Assembly (NCBI RefSeq): GCF_965363235.1
Contig: NC_134847.1
Location: forward strand, 69,846,935 to 69,910,934
Direction: 5' to 3'
Source: Mytilus galloprovincialis
Taxonomy: Eukaryota
Length of the DNA: 64,000 nucleotides
The notes under the pieces were generated by a model. That model was not told the origin of the DNA. It ran no database searches and was given only the letters and a program-made list of their open reading frames with translations. The translations under genes and the position numbers were made by a program. Below, in pieces: positions 20,701-59,100 of this stretch (positions are counted from its first letter, which is position 1; each line of letters opens with the position of its first letter).

Positions 20701-22699
20701 GTCAGAGGTTAAATTCAAGGTAATAAATATATAGATGAATTGACGATACATGTTCGTTCGAGAACTCGATGCGTCTGACTAGGGAGTTGTAGGTTCCCTG
20801 TCACAAGGCAACAGTATATTCAACCATTGTCAATATTTATATAGATAACAAAATCAATAAAACGGAATATTTCTGTTTAGCACAAGACAATAATAATCAC
20901 ATGGCAAAATCAAATAACCAAACGCATCAAAAACGAATGGACAAGAACTGTTATATTCCTGACTTGTACAGGCATTTTCAAATGTATAAAATGGTGGATT
21001 AAACCTGGTTTTATAGCGATAACCCTCTCACTTTGATGACAGTCTCATCAAATTCCGTAATATTTACATTGATGCGTAAACTAAACAGACACAATAAATA
21101 AAACAGTCAAAATATGGGCACATCAGTCATCATCGTATAACAATTTTAAAAGGAACAATTTAACAGAACACAAAAACATCTATCTACAAACACATTCATT
21201 GATTTGAGTGTCTGACGTCAGAAAATTTTATACGTCACATAAATTTGTCGTTCAATGTGCATACAATCAATTTTAAAATTTACAAAGGCAACGTAAGCAT
21301 ATAGGGTTAAAAAATCAAAAGTATGTAAGAATAAATTTCAGAAATAGACCGAGATTGAAAATAGTCCAAAAGTTATATATAGAATTTATAAGAATTCACA
21401 AATAGTAAATTCCACTACGCGATTGAATGATTTTGACGTTTATGGTTCAACGTATTTTGTAATTCATAATAGAAATATATCATAATGACATAAACTAGAA
21501 CAATATCATACTGACATACGGGATCTTTTGAAGTACAGAGTCACGTTATAAGAACCAAAGAAATACAAAATGTCGCATATACAAAGCACGACACCAAAAA
21601 TGGAAAGACAATACAAGCACATTGATGAGATGTACAAGTACCGAGACACGTCAAACGGAGATCACATCAAACCATTCACCAGTAAAAGTAATATTAATAA
21701 TAGAACAAAGACAAATGAAAGAACTATAAAACACGTTGTTAAGATGATAAACAACATCAGTACGCAGAATCTATACATCAAGACCATCGTGTATTATTTG
21801 TGACGTTGATACGGAATATTTATCAACAAGGTCTTGGTACCTTCCGATGAACTTTTTTTAGAAAAAGGACGAGACGTTCTTTGACATACACCTGGTTCAT
21901 TAACTTTCTACTCAGACACTGATGACGTTTTACAAAGTCTGAGTAGGAGCTGCAAGCTCTTGAATATCGAATAAGTTGGGAAATATATATCCCATATGCA
22001 GGTGAAGTTGGTATATTGCTACTAAGGTGGGGGAAATTTATAATTTCAAAATTAAAATCGTCTCGTTTGTAATAGATTCTGGTACTGAGATGACTGTGTT
22101 AGTCAAATTCGAGATATAAGTCTAAGAATGAATAAAGGCAACAGTAGTATACCGCTGTTCAAAACTCATAAATCTATGGACAAAAAACAAAATCGGGGTA
22201 ACAAACTAAAACCGAGGGAAACGCATTAAATATTAGAGGAGAATAACGACACAACATTAAATTGTAACACACACAGCAACGGACTAAGCATTAGACAAAA
22301 TCCGATGAGAATAACCAATATAACATCAAAACCAAAAACATGAATTTGGGATAGAAAAGTACTGTGACACGTCTTATAGTAATGTGAATTCATACTCAAA
22401 AATAGAAGAAAACAAACGACACAACGGGAAAAAATGAGGCAGAGGAAACCGTGTCTGTTGTTTCTTTAATCTCTAGTTCTGGGGGATATATTAATGGAAC
22501 CCAATCAGAAAAGTTCGGATTGTTTATGGAAAGAACATCATCAATATATCTGAAAGTGAAATTAAATAATCTGGCAATTTTACACAAATACCAAATTGAA
22601 ATCTACGCTGGCTATGGTTTGAAACCGTATTTGAAATTAAGTAGGGCGTCTATATAAAGTTAGGTCTTAATGAATTTATACAGAATCAAATGTGAATTA

Positions 22700-22990
22700 T
22701 CAACAAACATACTACATATTAGTCTGACTCGGAGGGCTCCCTGTGTTGTAATTGAAACTATTTCATAAAGCATTAACCATCAAGCATAATACATATTCGT
22801 CTAACTAGAAGGGCTTTCTGTGTTGTAATTTCGATACTATTTCATATAGCAATGACCATCAAGCATAATACATATTAGTCTGACTAGGAGGGCTTTCTGT
22901 GTTGTAATTTTGATACTATTTCATATAGCAATGACCATCAAGCATGATACATATTAGTCTGACTAGGAGGGCTTTCTGTGTTGTAATTTT
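22700..22990. repeat. Minisatellite of about 66 bp units, about 4 copies (about 2.5 copies at the paralogous site 50890-51050)
   Basis: The unit 'attagtctgactaggagggctttctgtgttgtaattttgatactatttcatatagcaatgaccatcaagcat.atacat' repeats head-to-tail. Confidence 0.8.
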
Positions 22991-23184
22991 GATACTATTA
23001 ATATAGCAATGACCGTATGATTCGACTTGTAAATTTAATTATATGCCTTATTCTGACTCAAAGCGGAGAGTATAATTGTGAAACGTCGAAGGCATACAAG
23101 CTTTTCTGTATAAAAAATTTCTGACTGGTTTGGTAATTAAATATCGATCAAACAATTTAAATTTTTAATGTGTTTATTCCATAT

Positions 23185-24500
23185 ATATATATATATGTGT
23201 AACACTCCCAAACGTGTCCTTCCCCCCAAACGTGTCCGATTCCCCCATACGTGTCTATTCTCCCCAAACGTGTCCATAATATTCAATATTCCCCAAACGT
23301 GTCCGATTTCAGAACCTCCAAACGTGCCCGATACTATTGTTATTCGCCCAAACGTGTCCACTTTTAAACGCCAGAACGTCTCGTGTCTTTTGCGCTAATA
23401 CATGTCCTAAACGCGACATCAATAACGTTCGCGGCAGTTCTATGATGGGGGACACAGTTGATAAAGTGGTAATTTATTAACATTAACTTGTTCAATGCCG
23501 GTTGTTAATGATTATCATTACTGAAAATTTAATATGTAACATATGCATTAACTTTTGACTTAATTTGCTTATTGTCCAGTTGCAAGTATTTCATACTCAT
23601 TTAAAGCGAACATACAAATAATTCTAGTACAGTTGAATTAATCGTTTACTATGTAAATTTTATACTAATAAACTCCGATGATGCCTTTTATATTAATCAG
23701 AATATTCCACGGTGGGCTTTCAGTCGAATTGAACTCCCATCTTTTTTTAACAGTTCTAATTTTAATAAATTTTAAGTTACGAGCGTCACTAAAGACACAC
23801 GAACAAGAGATATAACGTCCAGTGCCAAATATTTCATTCGTTATTTGAACGATATCATATTAACGATATATACTGTAGATAGGTTATATTATCAAACCGG
23901 GAATTTAAAATTGGGCATTAATTTTTACGGTTATTTGGGATGACCACTAGTTTGGATTTTAATCTAAAGAAAAATAAATGCGAGTAAAGACCGATTTGTT
24001 TATGACTTCAGTAAGAAACTACTTCAATGTCTGTTATGTAATATAGAGGCCGTTTCAAATAAAAGTTGTAGAAATTAAAAAAAAATTTGCCTTCCAAAAT
24101 ACAAAGTTTGGCACATTATAAAGAGTGAAATGCTACAAACATTTTAATGGGCATAGAAAAAGAATTTAAGTAATTTATGTTGATCTTTTAATGAAGTAGT
24201 AAAAGATCGTAAAATGAGTATACAATGATAGTAATAAAAAAAACACACACAAATAACCTACGTTTTTATAATATGAACACGAATGATAGTTCCAGTAAAA
24301 TAAAAAAAGCTTGGTATGGACACGTTTGGGGGATTGGACACGACTGGGGGTTTATTAAAAAATGGACACGTTTGAGCGTTTATACAAATGACACGCTTTG
24401 GTGCCATTTGACAACTAGACATGTCTTTGCAGTTCAGTGACGTCGATGTGGACACGTTTGGGGGAATCGGTCACGTTTGGGGGGTTACATATATACGATA
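23185..24500. mobile_element. Non-autonomous TIR/foldback-type element whose subterminal inverted arrays are built from the 12-mer CCAAACGTGTCC
   Basis: The left end (23195-23400) has at least 8 copies of CCAAACGTGTCC or variants. The right end (24300-24490) has the reverse complement, GGACACGTTTGG, multiple times. The termini are tatatatgtgtaacactccc and ggggggttacatatata. The roughly 900 bp AT-rich interior has no credible ORF. Confidence 0.6.
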
Positions 24501-25842
24501 CTTTTATAGTTTTTGGACATTATTATTGGACAGACATTTACTTGTGAAATATTAAAAAATGAATGATATTCAAAATTTAAACACTAACATGTCAAGAGAG
24601 GCAACTCAATTCTTTTTTTATATAAATTGTATAAGTTATAAACAGAAAAGATCTACTTAATCTCAGACACCAATAGCTACGGATATAAACAAAAAGAAAT
24701 CCGTTTTCCACTTTGTTCACATGGTCTGGGTAGGGCAGGGTTGATAACATACTAAGATAATTGTTTAGAAATGTGTGGCTGGGTAAAAATCACCCCCTTC
24801 GTATCTTGAAGTGTTGCGAAAAATGCAAAGACTATTTACAAATCTAACTCACAACTTGTGTTGACAGAGGGGACAAACAGTACTTGAAGGTCGTTGTCTA
24901 GCTGTGGTGGTTTCAAATCGAAAATAATATTATTGTGAAGACTAAAATTATAAACGTTCTTCTATTCAGTAATTGTGAGCATCAAAGAAACTCACAGGAA
25001 TGAAGAATTCACTAAAAAAAGTTTTCTATCTTTATCTATAAGTTATAAGCATAACTACATTTATAAGAGAAATTTAGGTTACATGCCAAGAAAATAATAC
25101 AGAAAACTGAAAATAATCCATTTAGAAAAGACAAATTGTTCTGCATTCCTGATCTGATATTACAAAGTTGTGATACAAATTACTGGATTAGTATATAAAA
25201 AAAAGTAAAATCATAAAAATACTGAACTCCGAGAAATATTCAAAGCGGAATGTCCCTAATTAAATGGCAAAATCAAAAGCTCAAACACATCAAACGAATT
25301 GACAACTACTGTCATATTCCTAACTTGGTTCAGGCATTTTCTTAGGTAAAAAGTGTGGGATTAAACCTTGTTTTATAGCTTGCTAAACGTCTCACTTAAC
25401 GCACGTAGACTTTGGGCTTTTTGATTCGTTAGCCATTCACATTGACAAATATCATAAAACAAGCATAGTTCATTTATAATTTCTAGGCTATCACATGAAC
25501 AATCTGTAAAATCTTAACAAGCCTTAGGACGTATATTGATTGATCTAAATGAGATATTAAGATTTAAATATCTAACTAACGTCATTCAAAGTTTCAACTG
25601 ATGATACTTATGAGTATTAATCATTCATATTTCCATGCCATTACTTAACAAAGATTTGTGAATACTATTACTAAATAGAATACTACATTGTAACCCCTTA
25701 AGGATATACTTTGAATAAATAAACACATGATTACGGTGACATTATCGATCAAGATAACAGGATGATTGGTTGATGATAAAAGAGTGTTTTCCATACGATC
25801 AGGGTTTGTGAACGACAATCTGATTTTATTTGCTTCTTTTGG

Positions 25843-25866
25843 TTTTTTTTTTTTTTTTTTTTTTTT
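25843..25866. repeat. T24 homopolymer, present in duplication copy A only (the copy B site at about 56390 reads ggttttcttttaaaggaggagg)
   Basis: It is directly visible. Confidence 0.9.
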
Positions 25867-28800
25867 GGACGGATTTAGGAACTGAATAAAGAGTATTTTG
25901 ACCTGATAGATATTTTGCCCCAAATAAAAGACAGGATAACTGAATAATTTGCATTTGGATAACATTGGGTTTTTTTCATCGTAAACCTGTGCAATTTGCT
26001 TATTTACTAAATATTTTGTTTAGTATAAGTTCTTTTTCAAAATCTGTCAACATTCTTGTACAACTGACCTTTGAGGAAAATACGGATGTGTCATTATTTG
26101 AATTTTGGTGTCCTGCTTAGTGCCACGTAAGTTCTACTATTTGCAATAGACAAATAAGGAATAGGTCCGTTGATTTTCTTGAAAATTATGCTCAAAGTTC
26201 TAACATGACCTCAAACTGCATGACCCAACCCCAAAAATACCAAATATCGTATCAATATAAACATCTTTACAATTACACAAATCTTACAAATTTCTGTTTA
26301 GATAGAAAATATAATGTAGATTGATATAACAACACCTTTAGTTGTTGGTTTGATTTCAGATTTATCTTAATATTTTAAATGTATTTGATATTTGTTTGCT
26401 ATAATATAACTCATGAAACTCCTTTTGTATCTAGAAAGTGCCTATACTAAACTATAACTCTACCTATCATAATAATAATGGCTGCATAAATAAATAACTC
26501 TGTAATGGAATCAATATTTTTTTACATTTAAGTAGGTAGCGGTAAAATGTATTTTTTAACTGGTCCACTTGGAAACGGGATTTTTAATAAAGATTACAAT
26601 GGAACATCAAACACGTTCATATCTATATCATTATAATCAATGTTTTGCATTTACAGTGTTTGTGATGTCGAAATATCAGTGGTATTAACAAATGCCACAA
26701 AGTGTGAAGACGTCCACTACAAAACGATCAACTACAATACAATAGATCAATTTTTTATGCAGTTGGCATTCTTCTAATGTAGTTAATAATATCGTTTTAT
26801 AAGTGACAAAAGGCAAAAGTCAAGATCGTACGTTTAACATGTTATAACTTAAGTAATAAGAAAAGAGTAAATAAACTCATCATAGATACAAGGATTAAAA
26901 TTTTGTATTAACGCCTGACGCGCGTTTCGTCTACAAAAGATTCATCAGTGACTCTCGAATAAAAAAATTGAAAACGCCAAATAAAGTATGAAGTTTAAAA
27001 GCATTGAGGACCAACAATTCGTTAAAGTTTTTCCCAAATACAGTTAAGGTTATCTATTCTTGAGGTAGAAAAGCCTTAATATTAAATACTCAAAGTTTTG
27101 TAAACAGATAATTTATAATAATAACCATATCAATCATAATTTATGTCAACACTTAAGTGCTGACTCCTTGGCTGGTGATACCATCGGGGACTAAAAACTC
27201 CACCGATTTTTTAATAACTAAGGAACATGTCATCATTTGTCACTACAGAACATTGATATATCAACATAAATGCTATTGTAATGTAGTTGACAAATTTATG
27301 TTATCTCATTTTGCATTTGAAATTATCTTCGCACAAGACTGCATATTAAAGACTTTGTTCATATAAACTACTGTGAGTTCAGTAGAATATTAAAAATATA
27401 GTTTAACTAATACAAATGAACTATGAATGGATTTTGAAAACGACCCATTATTTATTTATTTGAAACAAAATATGGAAAGATGATTTCAATGCATATTATG
27501 TTTCTCCTTTTATATTCCCTTATTATTAAAATATAAATCCCCGAAAGAAAAGTTAATATGATTTTAGAACTTGATGCTTCAGAAATTTAACATTAAAGAT
27601 CAGAAATTTTGTTCTTCTGGTCCTACATAATTAAGGCTATGTTTTCATGCGAAAAATTTCATGTCAAAAGAAAAATGTTAACTTTACATTGGCAGCAGAG
27701 CTGGAAAGATCTCTAAAACAAGATACCGCTGTAAAGTCCATGTGAAACATTGTTACATTTTACTGATTGTTTTCAGGTTCTGTCCTCTATTATTAATATA
27801 AGTCATTATCGTTTGACGACTTTGTCAATAAAAATGTTGATTATTCAAAAGCATTAGACAGATAAAGAATACCTTCATATAAGTTGTTTATGGAATTCAT
27901 TAACGCAGAACTAGACGACCATAAGAATTTGGGGACACCAAAATTAATAAGATAAATAAGATAAATTCTGTCATAAAGATATTATGAAATGCATGTAAGC
28001 AACATACACATTTTCCATCTTAGCATTTAAACAATCACAAACATATCAAAGAATAAACCCACCTGATGTTGAAATGTAGTAAATAAAAATTTGAAATATG
28101 TAACATATTCTTTATTCTCAATATCATTTCGCAATGAATAAATCTGAATATAAAATACACAACAAAGTTTTGCAGTTTATTTCTAATGATATAATCTTTA
28201 TATGCTCTACAATTTCGACGTGTGGTGAACGACTCTTACAAAAAGAACCGCATGATAAAGAGTTTTGGAAAAGTGCCATCACGACATTTATCTTCACTTA
28301 CAATAAGTATAAATCTTTCCTTTTCGAGACAGTGAACCAAAAAAAAAAATGAATATCTTCTGTACTTTCGTTTAACCTATATCTTTGATATTATATATAC
28401 ACCATACTTACTGGAACACTACAGAATTCAATTTAACTTAGGCTCTTATCATTCATAATTTGGAAGGAGGATTTCGGTTGTTTTTTTTAGGAGAATGACT
28501 TCAATAAATACTAACTAACAAACAGGAACAGGTTATGTGTTTTGATATTCAATGATGTATTTCTCCCCTCAACCTTTTATGTGTAAGGGGGCTCGCGGGT
28601 CTAAATCAATTTTTTTTTTCTAATATAGGATTTCGCTATATTTTTCTATAAATGAACTTTATCTTATACCTAAAAGAAAAATAAAATAAAAAATTGGGGT
28701 CACCGTTCATTTACGCTCACAATCTGCATTCGAAAGAAGCATACATTTTTTGTAAAGGTACTTTTTTTCTGTAGAACTATTAGCAGAAATAGAGGTAATA

Positions 28801-29388: not shown

Positions 29389-29718
29389 ATGATACCACAA
29401 AGTGCAAACATGTTTATAGTTAAATACGTTTTATTCTTTATAAATGTTTTCAGTCCGGCTCAAACTGAATCAAACATTTTTCGCATTCACCCAGATCGGC
29501 TTGATTCTAAACTGCAAGGATACATTTATTTAACATTTGAGAAAATATCACCGAGGTTGTGCTTTAACAAATGTATACGACGACCTAACTGTCACTCGTA
29601 CAACTATAATAAATCTTTACTGACATGTGAACTAAATAACAAGCCAAAATCTGTATCTTCTGATGATTTCTTTTTTCAGAATGGATATGTGTATGTTGAA
29701 ATTGAACAGTACAGAGGG
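29389..29718 (+). CDS. Exon 1 of secreted PAN/apple-EGF-mucin gene: signal peptide plus PAN/apple-like domain
   Basis: The ORF-track ORF 29389-29739 has alternative Met codons at 29389 and 29410, followed by a hydrophobic N-terminus (FIVKYVLFFINVFSPA|QTE) typical of a signal peptide. A 4-Cys motif follows (LCFNKCIRRPNCHSYNYNKSLLTCEL) that matches the PAN/apple core pattern C-x3-C-x5-C...C-x-L. The ORF track shows the frame running 6 codons past a consensus GTATGT donor placed directly after codon GGG at 29718, so the exon ends in phase 0 and is phase-compatible with exon 2. Confidence 0.6.
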
Positions 29719-30448
29719 GTATGTAAAAAATTCATATAATAAGGAAAATAATATCTTTTTTGACTAACGTTTTCGATTTATTGTATTATTCTGAACGAAA
29801 TATAAGTTTTGAGCATTGTCCGTGATTCGTAAAGACAGAAATATAATTAGAAAAATAATATGTTCTTAACTTATTATCAGCCTTCAATCATATCAATTAT
29901 AACGTAAATAGGTTAATTTTGTGGTGATTGCTGGGTTCGTGTTGTTGCTTTGTCTTCTTTGTTTTCTTTGTTGTGTCTTGTGTACTATTACTTGTCTGTT
30001 TGTCTTTTTCTTTTTCAGCCACGGAGTTGTAATTTTATTTTCGATCTATGAATGTGACTGTCCCTCTGGTATCTTTCGCCACTCTTTTAGAACAAAACAT
30101 CTAAATACCGTGGTGCAGAAATATAGTTTGTCATGTTAAAATAGTAAAATTGATTCATTTGACCTAAAACGATAACATTACACATAGTTATGGTAAAACA
30201 TTTATCAAAATCTTCACCCAAAAAATACTTTACCTACTGCAACATCGTTTCAGATAATTGTAAACAATGCTGTTGAGCAAAGGATATATAAATGACAAAA
30301 ATCAAACATAGATATTCAGCCCCTTTCTACAATTTAGTCAGACGTCAGTCGCTACCCTAATACACCCTATCGTTTCGGGGTAATTAATACGGATAGCGTT
30401 TGACATCTTTAGCCGTACAGATTTATCATTTTTACATAACCTAATTCA

Positions 30449-33210
30449 TTGTATGCTGGTTCATATTCTGGACACCAGTCTTTGCTCCTTTCTAATATAA
30501 TTCACAAACAAAAAACAAATATGAAGCTTAGAAATGGAAAAATATTAAATACTAAACTCGTTCAAAGGGTATCTACACGTCTCAATCTTGAAAATCGCTT
30601 ATATAAAAGTACAACCATCGCTAATATTTTTAACAATAAAAATCTTGGTTACCCTTCTATTGATAAGTATCGTTTTAAAAGACCCAATAAATTCAAAAGT
30701 ATCATTTATCAACACCTTAAGAAGCACAATCATCCTATTAAATATTTAGCAGTTCAACCTTTGGAAGTAGTAAATAAGCAGCCTGGTGAATCTCATTCAA
30801 AGTTTGTACGATCACGGAAAATAATTGAATTAAAAAATTACAGATAGTCTACCCTCTCTGTCTTATTGATAATATCATGGGAATTGGCAATATATCAAGA
30901 ACCGATTCTGTTAACATTTTGGATATTGTTTCTAAAACTGTTCGAAAAAAACCGCTCTCATGGTCGTAGAAAAAATCGCAATCAAAGAAAACTTCGGACA
31001 AATCATACCAATATTTCGGACCTAATTTCTATTTCAAAAAACAACGGCAGACATTATCTGTTAACTAAGCTCTGTTCGTTACCGATTAATAAGTTAAATA
31101 TAATTCTAAACTGTCCTAAAATTGATCGTCCTGAAGATCATAAAAAACATTTTATTAAAATAAAGTATGTCAATAAAGGTTTTGATTTTGCTAATATTGC
31201 TGGTATTTTTAACGACCATTCTGTTAAAGAACAAATTCCTGGATATTTTGATAATACTGAGCTCCCTCTTATTTGTTATATTTACAAGAAATCTACCCGG
31301 AAATTTGTGTTTAATTATAGCCAATTGTGTAAAGATGTTAATATCAGTGAAAATACACCTACTTCATGTAATTGCAGTAATTCCAAATACATTTATGCAC
31401 CCATTTCCCATGTTATAACAGGAGATCTTAACATCGTTCAAGACCGAGAGTTGAAATCATTCCTCAGTAAAGGACCTAAATATCGTCCCCCTTCAACTAT
31501 TAATTGGAATGAGTGTCGTGATATCATCCACGACTCACTCCGTACTTACTGTTTGAAATGGATAAAACGGGAAAAAGCTGACAAAAAATCTTTGGACTCT
31601 TTTTTTAATTCAGTAATAAACATTGTTAATATACGTATTCAACATTTTAAAGAACATTTTACTCTTAACAATAACCACAATAAACCTATTACTCGTATCA
31701 AACATAAACTAAAAGAATTTGTTTTTGTCCCGGCCGATAAAGCTGCTAATAATATTATTATTGTTTGACGTAAATTTTACATTGAGGTTCTACAAAAAGA
31801 AATCACCAATTCAACAATATTCCAACTGACTCCATTTTCAGAAAACGACATCTGTAACAAACATAAACTTTTAGCTACTGCTTTACAAACAGAACCAAAA
31901 ACAATGAAAGTCCCAACTATGTATTTGCTTCCGAAACTACACAAAACACCTTACAAATATAGATTTATTTCGTCTTCAAGCCATTGTTCCACTACTAAAT
32001 TATCTATTCTTCTTACCAGTACACTTGGTACAATCAAAAACCTGATAATAAATTGTTCAAATAAGGCCTTCGAAAATAGTGGAATTAATTACTTTTGGAG
32101 TGTCAAAAACTCGTTGGAAGTACTTGATAAATTGCATGCTTATATTGGTGATTTTGAATCTGTTCAAAGTTTTAATTTTTCTACCCTATATACCACATTG
32201 CCTCACATTCTCATTAAGAAAAAATTCACACACCTAATTAAATGGGCATTTAAAAAGTCAGAATGTGAATATATATGTTCAAACTCTTTTAGGTCATTTT
32301 TTAGTAGCAATAAACAAAAAAACTATGTCAATTGGACATGCTTTGATACTATATCTGCTCTTGAATTTTTACTAGATAACTTTTTTGTTCGCTTTGCAGA
32401 TTCCGTATATCGTCAGGTTATCGGAATTCCAATGGGGACTAACTGTGCACCACTTTTTGCGGACCTGTTTTTGTATTGCTATGAGTTACAATATATGACA
32501 AAAATCAGCAAAGACCCATCGAAACATTTCTGATACACAAATTTAATAATACTTTTAGATATTTGGATGATATTTAAGCTCTCAATAATGACGACTTAAG
32601 TATGTAAACTAAAGAAATTTATCCTGTTGAACTTACTTTAAATAAAGCTAATGCTAACAATGACCACTGCCCTTACCTCGATCTTGATATATATATCATT
32701 AACGGAAAGTTTAATACTAAAATTTATGATAAAAGAGATGATTTCTCATTTCCTATCGTTAATTATCCATTTTTAGATGGTGACGTTCCCTTGTCACCAT
32801 CTTACGGTGTTTATATATCTCAACTTGTACGATTCGCTCGTGTATGTAACAATGTTGTAGATTTTAACGATAGAAATTTATGTATTACTGAAAAATTATT
32901 ACACCAGGGTTTTCGATATCACAAACTAGTCAAAACATTTACTAAATTTTATCATCGGTATAAGGACATCATTCGTAAATATAGCTCAACATGCAGATTT
33001 CTTATACGTTCAGGTATTTCACATCCAATATTTTATGGAAATATTCTTTATAAAGCACAAAAATGTCAGTATTCACCTCAGAAGCTAACAAAACCTTTAA
33101 ATAGACTTATTAAGAAGGGATATAGTTACGATACTGTTGTCAGGTCATTAAAGATTGCATATTTTGGCGTTAATATTGATTCACTTATAGGGTCTTTGCA
33201 TCGGAACTAA
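30449..33210 (+). mobile_element. Degenerate RT-bearing retroelement (unclassified) inside intron 1
   Basis: Consecutive plus-strand ORFs 30449-30847, 30866-31768, 31904-32533 and 32791-33210 are broken by frameshifts and stops. Reverse-transcriptase motifs are present (VIGIPMGTNCAPLFADLFLY; out-of-frame FRYLDDI at about 32553-32573). A conserved C-terminal region (ISHPIFYGNILYKAQKCQYSPQKL) is also present. Confidence 0.6.
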
Positions 33211-34291: not shown

Positions 34292-34403
34292 AACATTTTA
34301 GGACCCTCTACTGGATCCATGTCATAGAAAACCCTGCAAGTCAGCAGAGATTTGTGAAATAAAACTGGATGGAAACACATTTTGTGTAAAAGATAATAAG
34401 TAC
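34292..34403 (+). CDS. Exon 2: small EGF-like cysteine module (DPCHRKPCKSAEICEIKLDGNTFCVKDNKYIIK)
   Basis: The 112 nt exon is preceded by a polypyrimidine tract and ttttAG acceptor and is followed by a GTAAAT donor. It opens in phase 0 with a DPC..KPC..C..C spacing typical of the N-terminal half of an EGF-like domain. It ends with 1 extra nt, which exactly complements the phase-2 start of the mucin exon at 36418. The coordinates were hand-counted (±1). Confidence 0.5.
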
Positions 34404-36287: not shown

Positions 36288-36417
36288 TAAACAGTAAATG
36301 GAATAATATTCATATACAAATAAAAGAACACGTCGCAAAACATTGAAATTGAACGTTTTAAATTCGAGTACGATCCAGATTTGGATGAATAATGACGTCT
36401 CGTTTTCTCTTTTTCAG

Positions 36418-47952: not shown

Positions 47953-49871
47953 CTATTTACAATAAATAAAATTTCTACGTCTTTTAAAAATCAAATGACA
48001 GGTTTTGGCACACACACGTATCATATTTACATCTGAGAATAAAAACACTAACTTTTGATTATCATCTAAAGTATTAAAATTATCATTAAAAGTTTCAGCA
48101 ACATAATATAAATGGTTTCTAAAATCGTCATACAGAGGACATTTTAATAAAACATGCGCTTCATCGTCAATAAAAACGTCACATATATGGCACATTCTAT
48201 TTTCTAAAACAATATTTTCATATCTCCCTGTTTCAATTCTTAGGGGAGCAACACCATATCTAAATTTGGCGAAAGCACTTCTGTGACTGAAGGGTAAAGC
48301 TATTTTACAATATTCCTCCGATTCAAAATTTTCCTTAAACAGTCTGTAAGTTCGTAGCTTATTGCCACCTCTGTCGGATATAGATTTATCTAAATGTAAA
48401 ACACCATGCCAATTATCGACATGTTTTTCGTGTAATTTTGACATAATTTTTTTTATAACATAGTTAGTGTCCATATTTTCAGGACACGATAAATGACTTA
48501 AATTTAGTTTACTATTAGCCCACTTGTGAACTTTTGCATTTAACCGATTTAAGCTCATGTTATTTAATCTACACCACAAACGAATAATACTTTTCCACTG
48601 CTTATCAAAAATAGGTGTTATACCTAAGTCTCCAGTAACTGCAGCATTTGGTGCATATTTTCCTACTCCGAGAAAAAATCTACAAGCCCTAGTATGTATG
48701 GAGTTAATACAAGAATATGTTTTTACACCCCATATACCTGCTCCATATTCTATTATAGGACAAACCAAACTTTCATATAATTTTACAAATACATCGAAAC
48801 AAACACCACCTAAAAGTTTACATTTGGCTATTACCAACCCTAAAGCTCTATTTGCCGAAGATGCAACGGCTTTTGCAGTAACATTATAGTCTAAATGCTC
48901 GTTTAAAACGAGACCAAGATAAGTATAATTACTAGAAAAATTAATAGTATGACCATTACAATTAAAAATTACATCAGATCTAGGTATAGATGGCGGTCTA
49001 AAATGTACAACGTTACTCTTGTTTACATTAATTGTCATACATTGTTTTCACACCATGTAGATAAAGCATTTAACAGAAGTTGAAGCTCTTTTTCATCGTT
49101 TGCTATAATTACAACGTCATCAGCATATAATAAAATACACAGTTTTTCATCACCTATTTCTATTCCGCAGTCAAAGGACTTAAGAAATGTAACTAAATCA
49201 TTAATATACAAGTTGAACAAAATGGGCGACAAGGGACATCCTTGTTTCAAGCCACAGTTAACATCAAACCAGTCTGTGAAATGACCGTTTATTCTTACAG
49301 AACATAAAACATTTGTATAAATTGACTTAATAGCAGAACAAAAAGGCTGTGCAACACCCATGTTATTCAATTTATACCACAAAATATCCCTTTGTATAGT
49401 GTCGTAAGCCTTTTTAAAATCTATAAAGGCGCAAAATGTTGATTTACGAAGTTTTTTTCTTACATCTATCAAATTAGTAAGACTAGATAATTGGTCAATT
49501 GTACTACTTTGTTGCCGGAAACCATTCTGCTCGTCAGCCAGTACATTGTTATCATCTACCCATTGAGCTAATCTATCGCTCAGTATATTACAATACAATT
49601 TGTAAGACACGGCTGCCAGGGCGATCCCTCTATAACAAAGGGGGTCTCTCGGGTCCGACATGTTAGATTTAGGAATAGGATTTATAATAATTCTATTCCA
49701 TAAATCTGGAACATTACCATATCTAAAACAAATATCTTTGGTATCACCTCGGAGGTTCTTACGAGTTACCGGTCCTTGGTATGGTGACATGAAATTTTGA
49801 ACGAGAAAAAAATGTGAAAAAGGTGAAAAACATCTAATTTTGAGATATGTAAAAGATTGAAAATAGTCCAA
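47953..49871 (-). mobile_element. 5'-truncated non-LTR (LINE) retrotransposon, CR1/L2-like RT, minus strand
   Basis: ORF 49035-49871 carries RT domains (FRQQSSTIDQL, CAFIDFKKAYDTI, GLKQGCPLSPILFNLYINDL, LLYADDVVII). The abutting ORF 47953-49038 carries the RT thumb and a C-terminal Cys/His motif (CHICDVFIDDEAHVLLKCPLY). The two ORFs overlap by 4 nt, indicating a frameshift. No endonuclease domain lies upstream of the RT, which indicates 5' truncation. Confidence 0.75.
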
Positions 49872-51214
49872 AAGTTATATATAGAATTTATAAGAATCCA
49901 CAAATAGTAAATTCCACTACGCGATTGAATGATTTTGACGTTTATGGTTCAACGTATTTTGTAATTCATAATAGAAATATATCATAATGACATAAACTGG
50001 AACAATATCATACTGACGGGATCTTTTGAAGTACAGAGTCACGTTATAAGAACCAAAGAAATACAAAAAGTCGCATATACAAAGCACGACACCAAAAATT
50101 GAAAGACAATACAAACACATTGACGAGATGTACAAGTACCGAGCCACGCCAAACGGATATCACATAAAACCATTCAACAGTAAAAGTAATATTAATAATA
50201 GAACAAAGACAAATGAAAGAACTATAAAACACGTTGTTAAGATGATAAACAACATCAGTACGCAGAATCTATACATCAAGACCATCGTGTATTATTTGTG
50301 AAGTTGATACGGAATATTTATCAACAAGGTCTTGGTACCTTCCGATGAACTTTTTTAGAAAAAGGACGAGACGTTCTTTGACATACCCCTGGTTCATTAA
50401 CTTTCTACTCAGACACTGATGACGTTTTACAAAGTCTGAGTAGGAGCTGCAAGCTCTTTAATATCGAATAAGTTGGGAAATATATATCACATATGCAGGT
50501 AAAGTTGGTATATTGCTACTAAGGTGGGGGAAATTTATAATTTCAAAATTAAAATCGTCTCGTTTGTAATAGATTCTGGTACTGAGATGACTGTTTAAGT
50601 CAAATTCGAGATATAAGTCTAAAAATGAGGCGGAGGAAGCCGTGTCTGTTGTTTCTTTAATATCTAGTTCTGGGGGATATATTTATGGAACCTAATCAGA
50701 AAAGTTCGGATTGTTTATGGAAAGAACATCATCAATATATCTGAAAGTGAAATTAAATAATCTGGCAATTTTACACAAATACCAAATTGAAATCTACGCT
50801 GGCTATGGTTTGAAACCGTATTTGAAATTAAGTAGGGCGTCTATATAAAGTTAGGTCTTAATGGATTTATACAGAATCAAATGTGAATTATCAACGAACA
50901 TACTACATATTAGTCTGACTCGGAGGGCTCCCTGTGTTGTAATTTTGAAACTATTTCATAAAGCATTAACCATCAAGCATAATACATATTAGTCTAACTA
51001 GAAGGGCTTTCTGTGTTGTAATTTTGATACTATTAATATAGCAATGACCATATGATCGACTTGTAAATTTAATTGTATGCCTTATTCTGACTCAAAGCGG
51101 AGAGTATAATTGTGAAACGTCGAAGGCATACAAGCTATTCTGTTTAAAAAATGTCTAACTGGTTTGGTATTTAAATATCGATCAAACAATTTAAATTTTT
51201 AATGTGTTTATTCC

Positions 51215-52527
51215 ATATATATATATATATGTGTGTAACACTCCCAAACGTGTCCTTCCCCCCAAACGTGTCCGATTCCCCCATACGTGTCTATTCTCAC
51301 CAAACGTGTCCATAATATTCAATATTCCCCAAACGTGTCCGATTTCAGAACCCCAAACGTGCCCGATACTATTGTTATTCGCCCAAACGTGTCCACTTTT
51401 AAACGCCAGAACGTCTCGTGTCTTTTGCGCTAATACATGTCCTAAACGCGACATCAATAACGTTCACGGCAGTTCTATGATGGGGACACAGGTGATGAAG
51501 TGGTAATTTATTAACATTAACTTGTTCAATGCCGGTTGTTAATGATTATCATTACTGAAATTTAACATATGCATTAACTTTTGACTTAATTTGCTTATTG
51601 TCCAGTTGCAAGTATTTCATACTCATTTAAAGCGAACATACAAATAATTCTAGTATAGTTGAATTAATCGTTTACTATGTAAATTCTTTTATACTAATAA
51701 GCTCCGATGATGCCTTTTATATTAATCAGAATATTCCACGGTGGGCTCTCAGTCGAATTGACCTCCCATCTTTTTTTAACAGTTCTAATTTTAATAAATT
51801 TTAGGTTACGAGCGTCACTAAAGACACACGAACAAGAGAAATAACGTCCAGTGCCAAATATTTCATTCGTTTTTTGAACGATATCATATTAACGATATAT
51901 ACTGTAAATAGGTTATATTATCAAACCGGGAATTTAAAATTGGGCATTAATTTTTACGGTTATTTGGGATGACCACTAGTTTGGATTTTAATCTAAAGAA
52001 AAATAAATGCGAGTAAAGACCGATTTGTTTATGACTTCAGTAAGAAACTACTTCAATGTCTGTTATGTAATATAGAGGCCGTTTCAAATAAAAGTTGTAG
52101 AAATTAAAAAAAAAATTTGCCTTCCAAAATACAAAGTATGGCACATTATAACGAGTGAAATGCTACAAACATTTTAATGGGCATAGAAAAAGAATTTAAG
52201 TAATTTATTTTGATCTTTTAATGAAATAGTAAAAGATCATAAAATGAGTATACAATGATAATAATAAAAAAAAAACACAAATAACCTACGTTTTTATAAT
52301 ATGGACACGAATGATAGTTTCAGTAAAATAAAAAAAAGCTTGGTATCGACACGTTTGGGGGATTGGACACGACTGGGGGTTTATTAAAAAATGGACACGT
52401 TTGAGCCTTTATACAAATGACACGCTTTGGCGCCCTTTGACAACTAGACATGTCTTTGCAGTTCAGTGACGTCGATGTGGACACGTTTGGGGGAATCAGA
52501 CACGTTTGGGGGGTTACATATATACGA
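51215..52527. mobile_element. Second copy of the CCAAACGTGTCC-array element (within segmental duplication B)
   Basis: It has the same termini and 12-mer arrays as 23185-24500. Confidence 0.6.
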
Positions 52528-54400
52528 TACTTTTAGAGTTTTTGGACATTATTAATGGACAGACATTTACTTGTGAAATATTAAAAAATGAATGATATTC
52601 AAAATTTAAACACTAACATGTCAAGAGAGGCAACTCAATTCTTTTTTTATATAAATTGTATAAGTTATAAACAGAAAAGATCTACTTAATCTCAGACACC
52701 AATAGCTGCGGATATGAACAAAACTAAATCCGTTTTCCACTATGTTCACAGGGTCTGGGTAGGGCAGGGTTGATAACATACTAAGATAATTGTTTAGAGA
52801 TGTGTGGCTGGGTAAAAATCACCCCCTTCGTATCTTGAAGTGTTGCGAAAGATGCAAAGACTATTTACAAATCTAACTCACAACTTGTGTTGACAGAGGG
52901 GACAAACAGTACTTGAAGGTCGTTGTCTAGGTGTGGTGGTTTCAAATCGAAGATAATATTATTGTGAAGAGTAAAATTATAAAGGTTCTTCTATTCAGTA
53001 ATTGTGAGCATCAAAGAATCTCACAGGGATGAAGCATTCACTAAAAAAAAGATAATTTTGCCTTGAATTCTATCTTTATCTATAAGTTATAAGCTTAACT
53101 ACATTTATAAGACAACTTTAGGTTACATGCCAAGAAAATAATACAGACAACTTAAAATAATCAATTTAGAAAAGACAAATTGTTCTGCATTCCTGATCTG
53201 ATATTACACAGTAGTGATACAAATTACTGGGTTAGTATATATAGAAAAAAGTAAAATTATAAAAATACTGAAATCCGAGGAAAATTCAAAGCATAGAAAA
53301 AGAATTTAAGTAATTTATTTAATTTATTTTGATCTTTTAATGAAATAGTAAAAGATCGTAAAATGAGTATACAATGATAATAATAAAAAAAAACCACAAA
53401 TAACCTACGTTTTTATAATATGAACACGAATGATAGTTCAAGTAAAATAAAAAAAAAGCTTGGTATGGACACGTTTGGGGGATTGGACACGACTGGGGGT
53501 TTATTAAAAAATGGACACGTTTGAGCCTTTATACAAATGACACGCTTTGGCGCCCTTTGACAACTAGACATGTCTTTGCAGTTCAGTGACGTCGATGTGG
53601 ACACGTTTGGGGGAATCAGACACGTTTGGGGGGTTACATATATACGATACTTTTAGAGTTTTTGGACATTATTAATGGACAGACATTTACTTGTGAAATA
53701 TTAAAAAATGAATGATATTCAAAATTTAAACACTAACATGTCAAGAGAGGCAACTCAATTCTTTTTTTATATAAATTGTATAAGTTATAAACAGAAAAGA
53801 TCTACTTAATCTCAGACACCAATAGCTGCGGATATGAACAAAACTAAATCCGTTTTCCACTATGTTCACAGGGTCTGGGTAGGGCAGGGTTGATAACATA
53901 CTAAGATAATTGTTTAGAGATGTGTGGCTGGGTAAAAATCACCCCCTTCGTATCTTGAAGTGTTGCGAAAGATGCAAAGACTATTTACAAATCTAACACA
54001 CAACTTGTGTTGACAGAGGGGACAAACAGTACTTGAAGGTCGTTGTCTAGGTGTGGTGGTTTCAAATCGAAGATAATATTATTGTGAAGAGTAAAATTAT
54101 AAAGGTTCTTCTATTCAGTAATTGTGAGCATCAAAGAATCTCACAGGGATGAAGCATTCACTAAAAAAAGATAATTTTGCCTTGAATTCTATCTTTATCT
54201 ATAAGTTATAAGCTTAACTACATTTATAAGAGAACTTTAGGTTACATGCCAAGAAAATAATACAGACAACTTAAAATAATCTATTTAGAAAAGACAAATT
54301 GTTCTGCATTCCTGATCTGATATTACAAAGTTGTGATACAAATTACTGGGTTAGTATATATAGAAAAAAGTAAAATTATAAAAATACTGAAATCCGAGGA
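52183..54400 (+). repeat. Local tandem duplication, 2 copies of about 1.1 kb (52183-53290 and 53291-54400), present only in copy B
   Basis: The sequence from 'atagaaaaagaatttaagtaattta' to 'ggaaaattcaaagc' occurs twice head-to-tail, so the right GGACACGTTTGG array appears at both 52340-52520 and 53460-53650. Copy A has one unit. Confidence 0.8.
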
Positions 54401-54682
54401 AAATTCAAAGCGGAAAGTCCCTAATCAAATGGCAAAATCAAAAGCTCAAACACATCAAACGAATGGACAACTTCCTAACTTTGTTCAGGCATTTTCTTAG
54501 GTAGAAAATGTGGGATTAAACCTTGTTTTATAGCTTGCTAAATGCCTCACTTAACGCGCGTAGACTTTGGGCTTTTTGTTTCGTTAGCCATTCACATTGA
54601 CAAATATCATTAAAAAATAATAATTCATTTATACATTTCTAGGCTATCACATGAACAATCTGTGAAATCTTAACAAGCCTTA

Positions 54683-56096
54683 AGCCCCAGTCCCACTAGA
54701 CCACGATCGCACCACGCTCACCGCGATCTAAAATAAATTTAGATCGTGGTGAGGTCGCGGTATGAGCTGCATGAAAATGTAAATTTTCTTTGCTTTCACG
54801 ATGCTACTACGTCCTCTCTACGCTTCTACAAAGATCCCGCTACGATTATACCACGTTCTCACCGCGCTTATTCTGCGACCTCACTACGCTTATCAAGATC
54901 TTTCTACGCTCTTCACGTTCTCATTACGACCATACCACGAGTTATCCGATTGCAACACGATCTTACTGCGATTATAACACGTTCTTTCCACGATTATACT
55001 ACGTTCATAGCGCGATCTTACTACGTTCTCAGCAATAACGTCAACATCGTGTTCCATATCAATACAGTTCAATTCCATCTATTTCTGATTAAATCGTAGA
55101 TTCTCGGAAACATACAGTCATGCCACCAAAATCTACAAAACACCTGGGCATGGTGGTAGGAGTTGATGTAGAGGCAGAGGGAGCAAAGTAACGAATCCTG
55201 ATCTAGCAGAGATGTCGGACCGACCAATACAACCTAAATTACAACCTATTACTGGTCCATAAAGCTCAATGACGATATTTTAGTGAACGATAGCAGAGAT
55301 GATATATATAGGAAGATGTGGTATGAGTGCCAATGAGACAACTCTCCATCCAAGAAACAATTTATAAAAGTAAACCATTATAGGCCAAGGTTCGGCCTTC
55401 AACACGGAGCCTTGGCTCATAATCAATCAACACGTTATAAAGGACCCAACATATTACTAGTGTTAAACCATTTCAACGGGAAAACCAACGGTCTAATTTA
55501 TATAAAAACGAGAAGCATGGTTGAGCAGTTAGAGCAAATGGATAATTACATTCAAAGAAACAAAATCTAGGAGCTTTTTTATATATTTTATGTGAAAATG
55601 ACAATGAGAATGATGATCGTAGTGTGAACGTAGTCAGGTCGTAAGAAGAGCGTGATGAGGACAGCAAGGGCGTGCTAGAATCGTACAATGGTCGTGAACA
55701 GCGTGGTATAGTCGTAGTGGAAGCGTAGTTGGGTCGCAGTGAGAACGAGATGGTCGTAGTGAGGTCGTGATAACGTCGCTGTGAAATCGTAGCGCAGTAT
55801 CTCCGAATAGAATCATACTTTCGCTACGCTCTCGATACGATTGTACAGCGACCTTTGCGATCTTACTACGATCTTAGTGCGCTCTCACTACGCTTCTACT
55901 ACGACCTGATTTCGCCACGACCGCACCACGATTGTTTTGAACATGTTCAAAGTTGGCCACGCTCTTCACGATCTTGAAGACCTCACCACGACCGTGATAC
56001 GACCTTACTGCGATCTACACGATCGCACTACGATCATCAAAACTTGCATTTTTTTCACAGATTGTAGTGCGATTGTGGCCTAGTGGGACTGGGGTA
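54683..56096. mobile_element. 1.4 kb non-autonomous TIR element with TTA target-site duplication (PIF/Harbinger-like), whose interior is made of inverted CTACG/CGTAG short-repeat arrays
   Basis: It has roughly 30 bp imperfect TIRs (left AGCCCCAGTCCCACTAGACCACGATCGCAC, right GTGCGATTGTGGCCTAGTGGGACTGGGGTA). It is flanked by TTA on both sides (54680-82 and 56097-99). The orthologous site in copy A (about 25521-25528, ccTTAggacg) is uninterrupted with a single TTA. The interior 54720-55060 holds arrays of about 20 bp CTACG-containing repeats, and 55620-56060 holds their reverse complement. Confidence 0.75.
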
Positions 56097-58212
56097 TTAG
56101 GACGTGTATTGATTGATCTAAATGAGATATTAAGATTTAAATATCTAACTAACGTCATTCATAGTTTAAACTGATGATACTTATGATTATTAATCATTCA
56201 TATTTCAAATACTATTACTAAATAGAATACTACACTGTAATCCCTTAAGGATATACTTTGAATAAATAAACACATGATTACGGTGACATTATCGATCAAG
56301 ATAACAGGATGATCGGTTGATGATTAAAGAGTGTTTTTCATACGATCGGGGTTTGTGAACCACAATCTGATTTTATTTGCTTCTTTTGGTTTTCTTTTAA
56401 AGGAGGAGGGGTTTAGGAACTGAATAAAGAATATTTTGACCTGATAGATATTTTGCCCCCCCCCCCAAAAAAAACGGGATAACTGAATAATTTGCATCTA
56501 TTATATAGGATAACATTGGTTTTTTTTTTCATCGCAAACCTGTGCAATTTGCTTATTTACTAAATATTTCGTTTAGTTTAAGTTCTTTTTCAAAATCTGT
56601 CAACATTCTTGTACAACTGACCTGTGAGGAAAATACGGATGTGTCATTACTTGAATTTTGGTGTCCTGCTTAGTGCCACGTAAGTTCTACTATTTGCAAT
56701 AGACAAACAAGGAATAGGTCAGTTGATTTTCTTTAAAATTATGCTCAAAGCTCAAACATGACCTCAAACTGCATGACCCAACCCCAAAAATACCAAATAT
56801 CGTATCAATATAAACATCTTTACAATTACACAAATCTTACAAATTTCTGTTTAGATAGAAAATATAATGTAGATTGATATAATAAAACCTTCTATCATTT
56901 ATGGGTAGACTTTACATAGATAAATTCAGCCGTATTTGACGTGAAACTGTACTTATGTGTCCCGTCATACTTTGAACCACACCATTATTTTATTTATTAT
57001 TTTTATTGTAAGTCTGTTTTTTGTTATATCTACTTTACATGAGTCTGCATTTATGTATGCCGTCATACGACAAAATTATTTTTATGTCTACCTGTGCGAA
57101 TTTCAAACGCGCAATTTTACACCAGTAATGAAAACCTTCTTTCATTTATGGGTAGACTTTACATAGATAAATTCAGCCGTATAAGAAAAGCAAAATGAGA
57201 ATGTTAAATTTGATGTATGCCTTTTTGTGCTACTTTGTTACATTTGTTGTTTATGTAGTGATATTAAGATGATAACACAATATTGACTGTTGTACCCCTA
57301 TTTTTGACATTTTTACTCTTTGAGTATGTTTGTTTTGTTCATGCATCGTTGACAATGTAATGGAATTTGATGCGACTGTCATACAAGTGAGAGGTTTAGC
57401 TAGCTATAAAACCAGGTTCAATCCACCATTTTCTACATTAGAAAATGCCTGTACCAAGTCAGGAATATGACAGTTGTTATCCATTCGTTTGATGTGTTTG
57501 GACTTTTGATTTTGCCTTTTGATTTTTGATTTTCCTTTTTGAATTTTCCTCGGAGTTCAGTATTTTTGTGTTTTTACTTTTTAGTTGCTGGTTTTGGTTT
57601 CAGATTTATCTTAATGTTTTGAGTGTATTTGATATTTGTTTGCTATAATATAACCCATGAAACTCATTTTGTATCTAGAAAGTGCCTATACTAAACTATA
57701 ACTCTACATATCATAATAATAATGAGTGCATAAATAGATAACTCTGTAATGGAATCAATATTTTTTGGCATTTAAGTAGGTAGCGGTAAAATGTATTTTT
57801 TTACTGGTCCACTTGGAAACGGGATTTTTTATAAAGATTACAATGGAACATCAAACACGTTCATATCTATATCATTATAACCAATGTTTTGCATTTACAG
57901 TGTGTGTGATGTCGAAATATCAGTGGTATTAATAAATGCCACAAAGTATGAATACGTCCACTACAAAACGATCAACTACATAACAATAGATTTAATTTAT
58001 TTATGCAGTTGGCATTCTTCTAATGTAGTTAATAATATCGTTTTAAAAGTGACAAAAGGCAAAAGTCAAAATCGTACGTTTAACATGTTATAACTTACGT
58101 AATAAGAAAAGAGTAAATAAACTCATCATAGATACCAGGATTAAAATTTTGTATTAACGCCAGACGCGCGTTTCGTCTACAAAAGACTCATCAGTGACTC
58201 TCGAATACAAAA

Positions 58213-59100
58213 AATTGAATGCTTTTTCATATGTTTTCAGTTGGATTTAAATAATGAGAACTGGCACCTTACGCGAGGAGAAATTCTCACTATAGTAGAG
58301 GGGTCTGTAGAAGCTGAACTTAGGGAACGGTCACCCCTCCCCTTACCACATAGCTTCAAAACTTTGACCCCCAAACAAAAATCCCTATCGGTTGCCGTCA
58401 GTGAAATTTGTTTTTATTGGACCAGTGGAATAACCTGTCTCTTGACTGTCAGATTTAACAGGTGAAGGCAAGGACTCCCAGGTCGGAATGCTTTTTCACA
58501 TGTTTTCAGTTGGATTTAAATAATGAGAACTGGAACCTTACGCGAGGAGAAATTCTCACTATAGTAGAGGGGTCTGTTGAAGCTAAACTTAGGGAACGGT
58601 CATTGTTTATCAGCTGAGGGGTATATATGTTCAAATTTATTGAACCCCCCCCCCCCCCCCCAAAAAAAAAACATTATGAACCACATAATGACCCCCCTCC
58701 CCTTACCACATAGCTTCAAAACTTTGACCCCCAAACAAAAATCCCTATCGATTGCCGTCAGTGAAATTTGTTTTTAGTCGACCAGTGGAATAACCTGTCT
58801 CTTGACTGTCAGATTTAACAGGTGAAGGCAAGGACTCCCAGGTCGGAATGCTTTTTCATATGTTTTCAGTCGGATTCAATAATGAGAACTGGAACCTTAC
58901 GCGAGGAGAAATTCTCACTAAGTAGAGGGGTATCTAGAAGCTAAACCTAGGGAACGGTCTTTGTTTATCAGCTGAAGGGTATGTTCAAAATTTTCACCAC
59001 ATAATGACCCCCTACTCTTAACACATAGCTTCAAAACTTTGACCCCAAACAAAAATCCCTATCGATTGTAAAAAGAAATTCTCACTATAGTAGGACATTT
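58213..59100. repeat. Tandem repeat of 270-360 bp units, about 3 copies
   Basis: Units begin 'ggaatgctttttcatatgttttcagttggatttaaataatgagaactgg' at about 58215, 58487 and 58848. The second unit carries a C17A10 homopolymer insert. ORFs 58241-58465 and 58577-58777 are artefacts of this repeat. Confidence 0.8.

Follow-up and report, generated by a model that had tools for sequence, protein, structure and literature searches.

Direct low-copy repeats around genes are a textbook structure, and duplications and transposons are abundant in bivalve genomes. In mammals, non-allelic homologous recombination (NAHR) involves uninterrupted identity tracts of hundreds of bp. By the usual operational definition, segmental duplications have a length of 1 kb or more and an identity of 90% or more. 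Mytilus galloprovincialis has an average heterozygosity of 1.73% and massive hemizygosity, and it was left open how the massive variation in gene presence/absence in Mytilus came about (PMC7653742). Assemblies of heterozygous genomes are well known to contain false duplications (PMC9516828; bioRxiv 10.1101/2022.08.29.505626). Here we describe two direct copies of a non-coding block, A and B, which at 5.6 kb and 96.4% identity fall within this definition and bracket a plausible PAN-EGF-mucin gene in the window, i.e., the whole 64,000-nucleotide stretch of DNA that was analyzed. The pair is probably a genuine local segmental duplication in a genome of the mytilid-mussel type, in which A was copied downstream of the gene as B.

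Self-BLAST of the window showed A and B to be collinear direct repeats on the same strand, connected by a chain of six blocks, each with an E-value of 0, which far exceeds chance. The copies and blocks are as follows (here and below, features are unstranded unless a strand is given).

21352..26972: copy A, parental-type, 5,621 bp, from self-BLAST, edge comparison and alignment; runs on into dispersed repeats on both sides
49854..58219: copy B, derived, 8,366 bp, enlarged by later insertions; both edges cut repeats that are continuous in A
Block 1, plus/plus: A 21352-22131 = B 49854-50628
Block 2, plus/plus: A 22430-22859 = B 50621-51051
Block 3, plus/plus: A 22864-25246 = B 50899-53292
Block 4, plus/plus: A 24160-25526 = B 53308-54682
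Block 5, plus/plus: A 25524-26338 = B 56097-56891
Block 6, plus/plus: A 26337-26972 = B 57580-58219

The boundaries of the homology are base-sharp (beginning at A 21352 / B 49854, stopping at A 26972 / B 58219), all four flanks are mutually unrelated, and the interval between the copies is 22.9 kb. MAFFT alignments of the blocks comprise 4,835 aligned bases, of which 96.4% are identical in A and B (K2P 0.037), and 22 small gap events; the longest exact tracts measure 198, 170, 152, 128 and 124 bp. Divergence is uneven, rising from 2.6% to 5.5% in a step near A 24900 (2dLL 26). Judged from the alignment, this step is compatible with gene conversion between linked copies; it could equally be explained by uneven mutation rates or by an allelic mosaic. 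A previous sequence-only reading had placed two direct, collinear copies of high identity around the gene, and two of the checks it proposed, a self-comparison of the window and a measurement of identity, uphold it with the chain and the value given above. Its start of copy A stands, but its end (27085) does not: homology stops at 26972, and 26973-27134 is part of a dispersed repeat kept only in A. Copy B, given there as 49857-58213, has its exact edges at 49854-58219.

The bracketed gene looks real, as judged from its canonical splice sites and consistent reading frame.

29389..45695, plus strand: PAN-EGF-mucin gene, three exons
29389-29718, plus strand: exon 1, signal peptide and PAN
34302-34413, plus strand: exon 2, EGF-like
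36418-45695, plus strand: exon 3, mucin repeat of 363 bp (121 aa), 18.8 units

For the PAN exon, the annotated reference offers no close ortholog, its relatives being 58-60% identical; this may reflect no more than a window derived from a different species. Decayed mucin-repeat sequence extends to 47302; the distance of about 4 kb previously given between the last exon and B thus holds from the end of the ORF (4.2 kb) but not from the last mucin-like sequence (2.6 kb).

The duplicated block itself, as far as its composition tells, is a mosaic of old transposon fragments and not a single element: nested fragments of unrelated families lie within it in both orientations. Two of them are the following.

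21296..22575, minus strand: 5'-truncated, reverse transcriptase (RT)-like retroelement fragment with 3' UTR, crossing the left edge of A; counterpart in B at 49854-50766
23190..24491: nested element with inverted subterminal arrays of a ~19-bp motif (CCCAAACGTGTCC...), present in both copies

The RT-like fragment at the left edge of A has a YIDD box and in-frame stops; matches to Pfam RVT_1 are sub-threshold, and the family counts 2,941 relatives at E<=1e-20. In the independent copies L003, L004 and L006, homology ends in all three at A 22575 / B 50766. The arms of the nested element are 34 nt long, 94% complementary and 1,195 nt apart. No ORF longer than 124 aa, no Pfam domain above cutoff and no RNA gene (Rfam families, tRNAs) was found in the block. 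A phmmer search of 1.84 billion representatives with its longest ORF found no relatives, the two weak matches (best E=1.5e-5) being likely due to low complexity. The block has no visible function of its own, and its significance is structural. The fetched contigs L003-L008 represent other transposon copies, not an orthologous locus, and exact look-ups of 10 ORFs of the window in public assemblies gave no match.

Later events account for the entire difference in size between A and B, and the other copy still has the empty site. Every large insertion or deletion is marked by a target-site duplication, by terminal inverted repeats or by microhomology at its junction.

22132..22429: A-only insertion, 298-bp dispersed repeat, 8-bp target-site duplication; empty site in B
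22704..23014: 79-bp minisatellite, four units in A versus two in B (50899-51051)
52190..54411: B-only tandem duplication of a 1.1-kb unit (52190-53292 and 53308-54411, 98.8% identical), 2-bp GC junction microhomology
54683..56096: B-only DNA-transposon insertion, 1.4 kb, 15-bp perfect terminal inverted repeats, TTA duplication; empty site in A
56892..57579, plus strand: B-only retroposon-like insertion, 0.69 kb, of a family shared with 46057-46717; empty site in A

Relatives of the 298-bp insertion lie at 1190-1317 and in L001 (15058-15161), the DNA transposon is 75-81% identical to positions 10289-11449 of L001, a Mytilus galloprovincialis locus, and the tail of the retroposon-like insertion matches the 3' region of L005 and L007.

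The edges of the two copies bear on the direction of copying. On the right, the following features meet.

26866..27134: family-2 dispersed repeat, unbroken over the right edge of A; the part in B, 58112-58219, is cut at 58219
58217..59068: tandem repeat of ~360 bp, the right flank of B, which has GAA in common with B at the junction

Past 26972, A stays in register with the family-2 copies at 1560-1815, at 10262-10470 and in L001, whereas B departs at 58219; comparison of these repeat copies confirms the earlier statement that the right edge lies inside a family-2 repeat. On the left, about 55 bp outside 21352 still match the retroelement 3' region of the independent contig L006, whereas B departs at 49854. 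Because dispersed repeats continue past both edges of A but are interrupted at those of B, the source is A, or a locus like it, and B is derived; read from these edges, the polarity runs from A to B. Signatures of a single element (target-site duplication, terminal inverted repeats, LTRs) were looked for at the outer edges and not found; repeats run through both edges of A. A giant target-site duplication or LTR-like pair is ruled out by the continuity of the family-2 repeat over the right edge of A.

In the proposed course of events, the starting copy would be A, a non-coding 5.6-kb block of transposon fragments 2.4 kb upstream of the PAN-EGF-mucin gene. A DNA-level copy of it would have entered the same strand about 23 kb downstream, just past the gene, giving rise to B; presumably it was inserted at a break through end-joining or template switching, with a junction microhomology of 0-3 bp. 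The copies would then have diverged by about 3.7%, each acquiring separate transposon insertions and B gaining the tandem duplication.

To the left of B lie a LINE and a short spacer.

47802..49736, minus strand: 5'-truncated bivalve LINE with RT domain (Pfam RVT_1 E=5.5e-36); about the first 489 aa, including the endonuclease, are missing
49737..49853: spacer between the LINE and copy B, 117 bp

The presence of a 5'-truncated LINE just left of B, as previously described, is borne out by the RVT_1 match and by the start of homology at residue 490 of a 1,108-aa relative (P0235). The claim that it abuts B has to be withdrawn: homology to related LINEs stops at 49736, 117 bp short of B. At the DNA level, homology to L008 spans 49732-47802, and the first six codons of the LINE ORF as listed are read from copy B. 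The 3' end of the LINE lies within 47303-47802, the contig of the nearest relative stopping at the match to 47802. The only candidate for a target-site duplication of the LINE is a 9-bp repeat, TAAAAGATT, at 47669 and 49850 (chance ~0.05). No significant match to the spacer was found in the window or the fetched loci. Its derivation from an inverted piece of the LINE (twin priming) was rejected, with an alignment score of 52 against a shuffle mean of 41 and maximum of 60. LINE-mediated transduction was likewise considered; neither direct joining nor a common target-site duplication around the composite was found.

Other origins of the pair have to be weighed against a local duplication. A and B could be two haplotypes of one locus (X-A-gene-Y and X-B-Y, the latter lacking the 22.9-kb interval) that were placed in series by the assembler. 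The right junction of B looks as it would in a deletion allele, the family-2 repeat being cut and joined to Y with a 3-bp overlap, GAA. The divergence of A and B and their differences in transposon insertions are within the range possible for mussel haplotypes; two haplotypes could look like A and B because 3.7% divergence (plus structural differences) is only about twice the heterozygosity of 1.73%. We nevertheless consider a serial assembly of haplotypes unlikely: the window is free of Ns, and false duplications are typically adjacent or gap-flanked, whereas these copies are neither, with 22.9 kb of unique sequence between them. Moreover, the junction of spacer and B is dissimilar to the left flank of A, which excludes joining by overlap and would call for a chimeric join that no reads support. 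A tandem duplication of A together with the gene, followed by deletion, is unsupported, with neither a second copy of the gene nor the missing 5' part of the LINE found beyond 58219.

That the machinery of the neighboring LINE made B, so that LINE and B stem from one event, appears very improbable. It could have done so by a switch of the RT from the LINE RNA to a minus-strand transcript of A, or by LINE cDNA priming repair synthesis on A. B does lie at the truncated 5' end of the LINE, and the minus strand carries both the LINE and the retroelement fragment at the left end of B, as expected of a chimeric retrocopy. However, 117 bp intervene between the LINE homology and B, the switch in A would have taken place inside a 3' UTR and not at the end of an RNA, an unspliced template of 5.6 kb would be long, and the 3' flank of the LINE shares no target-site duplication with the right flank of B. 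The weak 9-bp repeat TAAAAGATT suggests instead that the LINE inserted later, beside a pre-existing B. Hardly any weight can be given to independent insertions of a large non-autonomous or composite transposable element, or of a multi-copy repeat from a third locus, even though the block is rich in transposon sequence and has sharp edges. Those edges are not element termini, because repeats pass both of them in A. The ends lack terminal inverted or direct repeats and TG...CA, the flanks differ at each copy without a target-site duplication (GACCG left of A versus TGCTT right of B), and the inside of the block, which has no coding capacity, is pieced together from unrelated fragments in either orientation. 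Furthermore, a search of about 90 kb of mussel-like DNA, made up of 39 kb of fetched loci and the remainder of the window, found no third copy of the core, and two copies in the same orientation 23 kb apart are explained more simply by local copying.

Taken as a local segmental duplication, A and B have the geometry of an NAHR substrate, lying in direct orientation on one chromosome on either side of a gene-holding interval. NAHR between them would delete or duplicate these 22.9 kb, and from this arrangement both NAHR and copy-number variation at the locus may reasonably be inferred. Since their identical tracts reach 198 bp at most, a modest length for NAHR to be efficient, A and B would form a usable but not a strong substrate. 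The locus is a candidate site of copy-number or presence/absence variation for a secreted PAN-EGF-mucin gene, with exactly defined breakpoints. It is rather doubtful that the mucin gene is dispensable in mussel populations and is removed or doubled by recombination between A and B. If it were so, the divergence step near 24900 would record an exchange between A and B, and the locus would illustrate concretely, at the level of sequence, how mussels come by their very large gene presence/absence variation. As it stands, the pair is an ordinary case of a well-known kind, and its modest value is practical, in marking this candidate gene. Annotators should also be aware that the copies would confuse read mapping and could be taken for a haplotype duplication, or even be one.

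Among known systems, the closest are the gene-flanking segmental duplications or low-copy repeats that mediate NAHR at human genomic-disorder loci. These share with A and B two direct copies of more than 1 kb and more than 90% identity at a distance of tens of kb, a bracketed gene, breakpoints in interspersed repeats and a divergence that is uneven, as with gene conversion. In contrast, A and B are small (5.6 kb), 96% identical with identical tracts of at most 198 bp, and consist purely of non-coding transposon debris; they are known from one sequence, whereas recurrent rearrangement is a feature of the human loci. LTRs and solo-LTRs resemble the pair in that a segment is enclosed by two direct repeats, which recombination would reduce to one hybrid copy. 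Unlike LTR retrotransposons, A and B lack a target-site duplication, TG...CA and gag/pol (A begins with AGATTG and ends with TTGAA, between the outer flanks GACCG and TGCTT), their edges are not element ends, and the interior is an intron-containing cellular gene, the mucin gene. The presence/absence variation in hemizygous regions of Mytilus galloprovincialis (Gerdol et al. 2020, PMC7653742) agrees with the present locus, whose nearest matches come from M. galloprovincialis, in the type of genome, a lineage-specific gene for a secreted protein and repeat-rich DNA; flanking direct repeats are not reported in that paper, whereas here they are present as A and B.

Copy A (21352-26972, upstream of the mucin gene) and copy B (49854-58219, downstream) form a collinear, same-strand chain in a comparison of the window with itself. 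Pairwise alignments of the edges showed that homology begins and stops within one or two bases and that all four flanks are mutually unrelated. Block-wise MAFFT alignment gave an identity of 96.4% over 4,835 aligned bases (K2P 0.037), with 78 transitions, 98 transversions, 22 small gaps and a longest identical tract of 198 bp. The collinear direct copies of high identity described in the sequence-only reading are thus borne out, and their coordinates were essentially right, except that copy A ends at 26972 and not at 27085. The pair is probably a real duplication, i.e., a direct low-copy repeat pair around one gene.

The window is AT-rich (33% GC) and contains no Ns. Its single convincing gene, PAN-EGF-mucin, lies on the plus strand:

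29389-29718, plus strand: exon 1, signal peptide and PAN/apple domain (Pfam PAN_1, E=1e-6, above cutoff)
34302-34413, plus strand: exon 2, EGF-like cysteine pattern
from 36418, plus strand: exon 3, the mucin exon, leading into a 3,061-codon open frame

Exon 1 ends at a GTATGT donor; a Pfam search of exon 2 gave no match despite its cysteine pattern. The open frame of exon 3 comprises 18.8 units of a Thr/Ser-rich 363-bp repeat. Only two proteins were related to the PAN exon (58-60% identity), one of them from M. galloprovincialis, and several dispersed repeats of the window match an M. galloprovincialis locus (75-88%); the window was therefore treated as a mytilid-mussel-type genome.

The mucin array breaks off at 45659, where a transposon stretch of about 1.06 kb (45659-46721) interrupts it; within this stretch the long ORF stops at 45695 with a hydrophobic tail (...CLSVFGVVFCI), so that the present C-terminus is transposon-derived. 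At 46722-47302 the array picks up again as a decayed remnant that contains stops. The repeat has a higher-order structure (38792-45561), in which 38796-40512 and 43845-45561 are 95% identical whereas adjacent units are only about 75-87% identical, which suggests that a block inside the array was duplicated recently. Intron 1 contains a 2.8-kb RT-like retroelement (30449-33210, plus strand) whose superfamily also includes the RT-like fragment of both copies (about 40% amino acid identity); another fragment lies at 2643-2939 (minus strand). Left of copy A, two inverted pairs (12008-12746 vs 19021-19750, 92%; 13016-13702 vs 15971-16663, 86%, these inner arms being 160-bp satellites) may form the inverted, satellite-carrying arms of one large element (12008-19750).

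The block common to both copies is without a gene: its longest stop-to-stop frame has 124 codons, no Pfam domain passed the cutoff, a search with the longest ORF in 1.84 billion representative proteins gave no meaningful relatives, and Rfam and tRNA searches for RNA genes gave no matches. It contains the following:

left 1.2 kb, minus strand: RT-like retroelement fragment, 5'-truncated and stop-ridden, with a YIDD box
interior, 1.3 kb: element with inverted subterminal motif arrays
25200-25397: copy of a short, LINE-tail-like repeat
right edge: family-2 dispersed repeat

The RT-like fragment belongs to a family with 2,941 relatives at E<=1e-20. Its truncation point is marked by the independent contigs L003, L004 and L006: the homology of each of the three breaks off at 22575 in A (50766 in B), while their own ORFs extend upstream. 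On a TARA metagenome scaffold (L007, 56-4587), an ORF of 199 aa that is 77% identical to the fragment lies 250 bp downstream of a complete LINE ORF (1,225 aa with endonuclease, RT and RNase H), either a nested or tandem pair of retroelements or a two-ORF element. In L006 a 3'-UTR piece (1-175) precedes a same-family RT ORF (512-1015); this order is a circular permutation of that in copy A and suggests that the family inserts in head-to-tail tandem or targets itself.

Copy B exceeds copy A by 2.7 kb. Each large difference is a later event, for which the other copy retains the empty site intact:

22132-22429, A only: dispersed-repeat insertion, 298 bp, with an 8-bp target-site duplication
54683-56096, B only: 1.41-kb DNA transposon bounded by perfect 15-bp terminal inverted repeats, TTA duplicated; related sequence in M. 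galloprovincialis
56892-57579, B only: 0.69-kb retroposon-like insertion of the same family as 46057-46717
52190-53292 and 53308-54411, B only: 1.1-kb tandem duplication, units 98.8% identical, 2-bp microhomology at the junction
79-bp minisatellite: four units in A, two in B

A and B have therefore had separate histories for some time. On the right side, A stays in register with three other family-2 copies (1560-1815, 10262-10470 and one at locus L001) for 40-160 bases past 26972, whereas B gives way at 58219 to a tandem repeat of about 360 bp that is unrelated apart from a shared GAA; the sequence-only reading had correctly placed the right end inside a family-2 repeat. At the left edge, L006 matches A unbroken through 21352 (about 21296 to about 21425), and B diverges from this sequence exactly at 49854. 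Both edges of B are therefore breakpoints within repeats that A has intact, which makes A, or an A-like locus, the source and B the derived copy. Right of B lie a tandem array (58217-59068, about 360-bp unit, poly-C/poly-A run at 58646-58670) and a second one (60408-61325, 168-bp satellite with a 334-bp dimer).

Microhomology at the B junctions (0 and 2-3 bp) fits a copied fragment having been inserted by end-joining or by a replication template switch. Divergence is uneven: it amounts to 2.6% between 21352 and about 24900 but to 5.5% onward to 26972, with the step at 24900 in A and about 54070 in B (change-point 2dLL=26; Fisher p=8e-6 with the split placed at 24160). Gene conversion between the linked copies could explain the lower value on the left, as could uneven mutation or a two-step origin. 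The dating proposed in the sequence-only reading was carried out; with 1-5e-9 substitutions per site per year assumed, K=0.037 would correspond, as a rough figure only, to 4-19 million years.

A LINE-mediated origin of B is very improbable. The LINE beside B (ORFs 47953-49871, minus strand; RT domain E=5.5e-36) belongs to a bivalve family with relatives in Mercenaria, Dreissena and Mya. Its homology to a 1,108-aa full-length relative starts at residue 490 of the latter, and at the DNA level the match to a copy that is 79% identical, and whose LINE sequence extends 1.45 kb further upstream, ends at 49732-49736; the LINE is therefore 5'-truncated, as proposed, but it does not abut B, from which 117 bases (49737-49853) separate it. 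This spacer had no match in the window or the fetched loci, and its similarity to an inverted LINE piece was not significant. Given the spacer, and since no target-site duplication joining the LINE 3' flank to the right flank of B was found, the LINE is not credited with the duplication. The 9-mer TAAAAGATT occurs at 47669 and again across the spacer/B junction at 49850 (chance probability about 0.05); if real, this repeat would mean that the LINE inserted later, beside a pre-existing B. Eight proteins (P0147, P0180, P0183, P0192, P0197, P0203, P0209, P0219) are 47-52% identical to ORF2 of this bivalve LINE; they are deposited under the name 'MAG: reverse transcriptase family protein' for the clam symbionts Candidatus Thiodiazotropha and Sedimenticola, but DNA of the bivalve hosts was probably binned into these bacterial MAGs.

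There is likewise little chance that A and B are members of a multi-copy repeat family: the block is a mosaic in which fragments from unrelated transposon families lie nested and in either orientation, so that it is ordinary intergenic DNA and not one mobile element, and the repeats running past the edges of A argue against two insertions of one element. The main rival, rather unlikely in our view, is a haplotype artefact in which a deletion allele X-B-Y (X and Y being the outer left and right flanks) was placed in series with X-A-gene-Y. This would yield exactly the observed picture, M. galloprovincialis has a reported average heterozygosity of 1.73% and massive hemizygosity (PMC7653742), and assemblies of heterozygous genomes of this type often contain false duplications (PMC9516828; bioRxiv 10.1101/2022.08.29.505626). 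However, the window is without gaps, A and B are not adjacent, and the spacer/B junction has no similarity able to cause an overlap-based mis-join.

Unequal homologous recombination between direct low-copy repeats deletes or duplicates the interval between them. For a genuine A/B duplication, such an exchange would delete or duplicate a 22.9-kb interval with the gene; the small spacing favors it, whereas an identity of 96%, with no identical tract longer than 198 bp, counts against it. Taken as a whole, the interpretation in the sequence-only reading is reasonable but only partly supported, and the non-allelic recombination proposed there is a hypothesis. The mechanism of gene presence/absence variation in mussels was left open in the literature (PMC7653742), and the locus is a precisely mapped, easily testable candidate for such variation. 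Its interest is modest, the pair being an ordinary example of a well-known kind.
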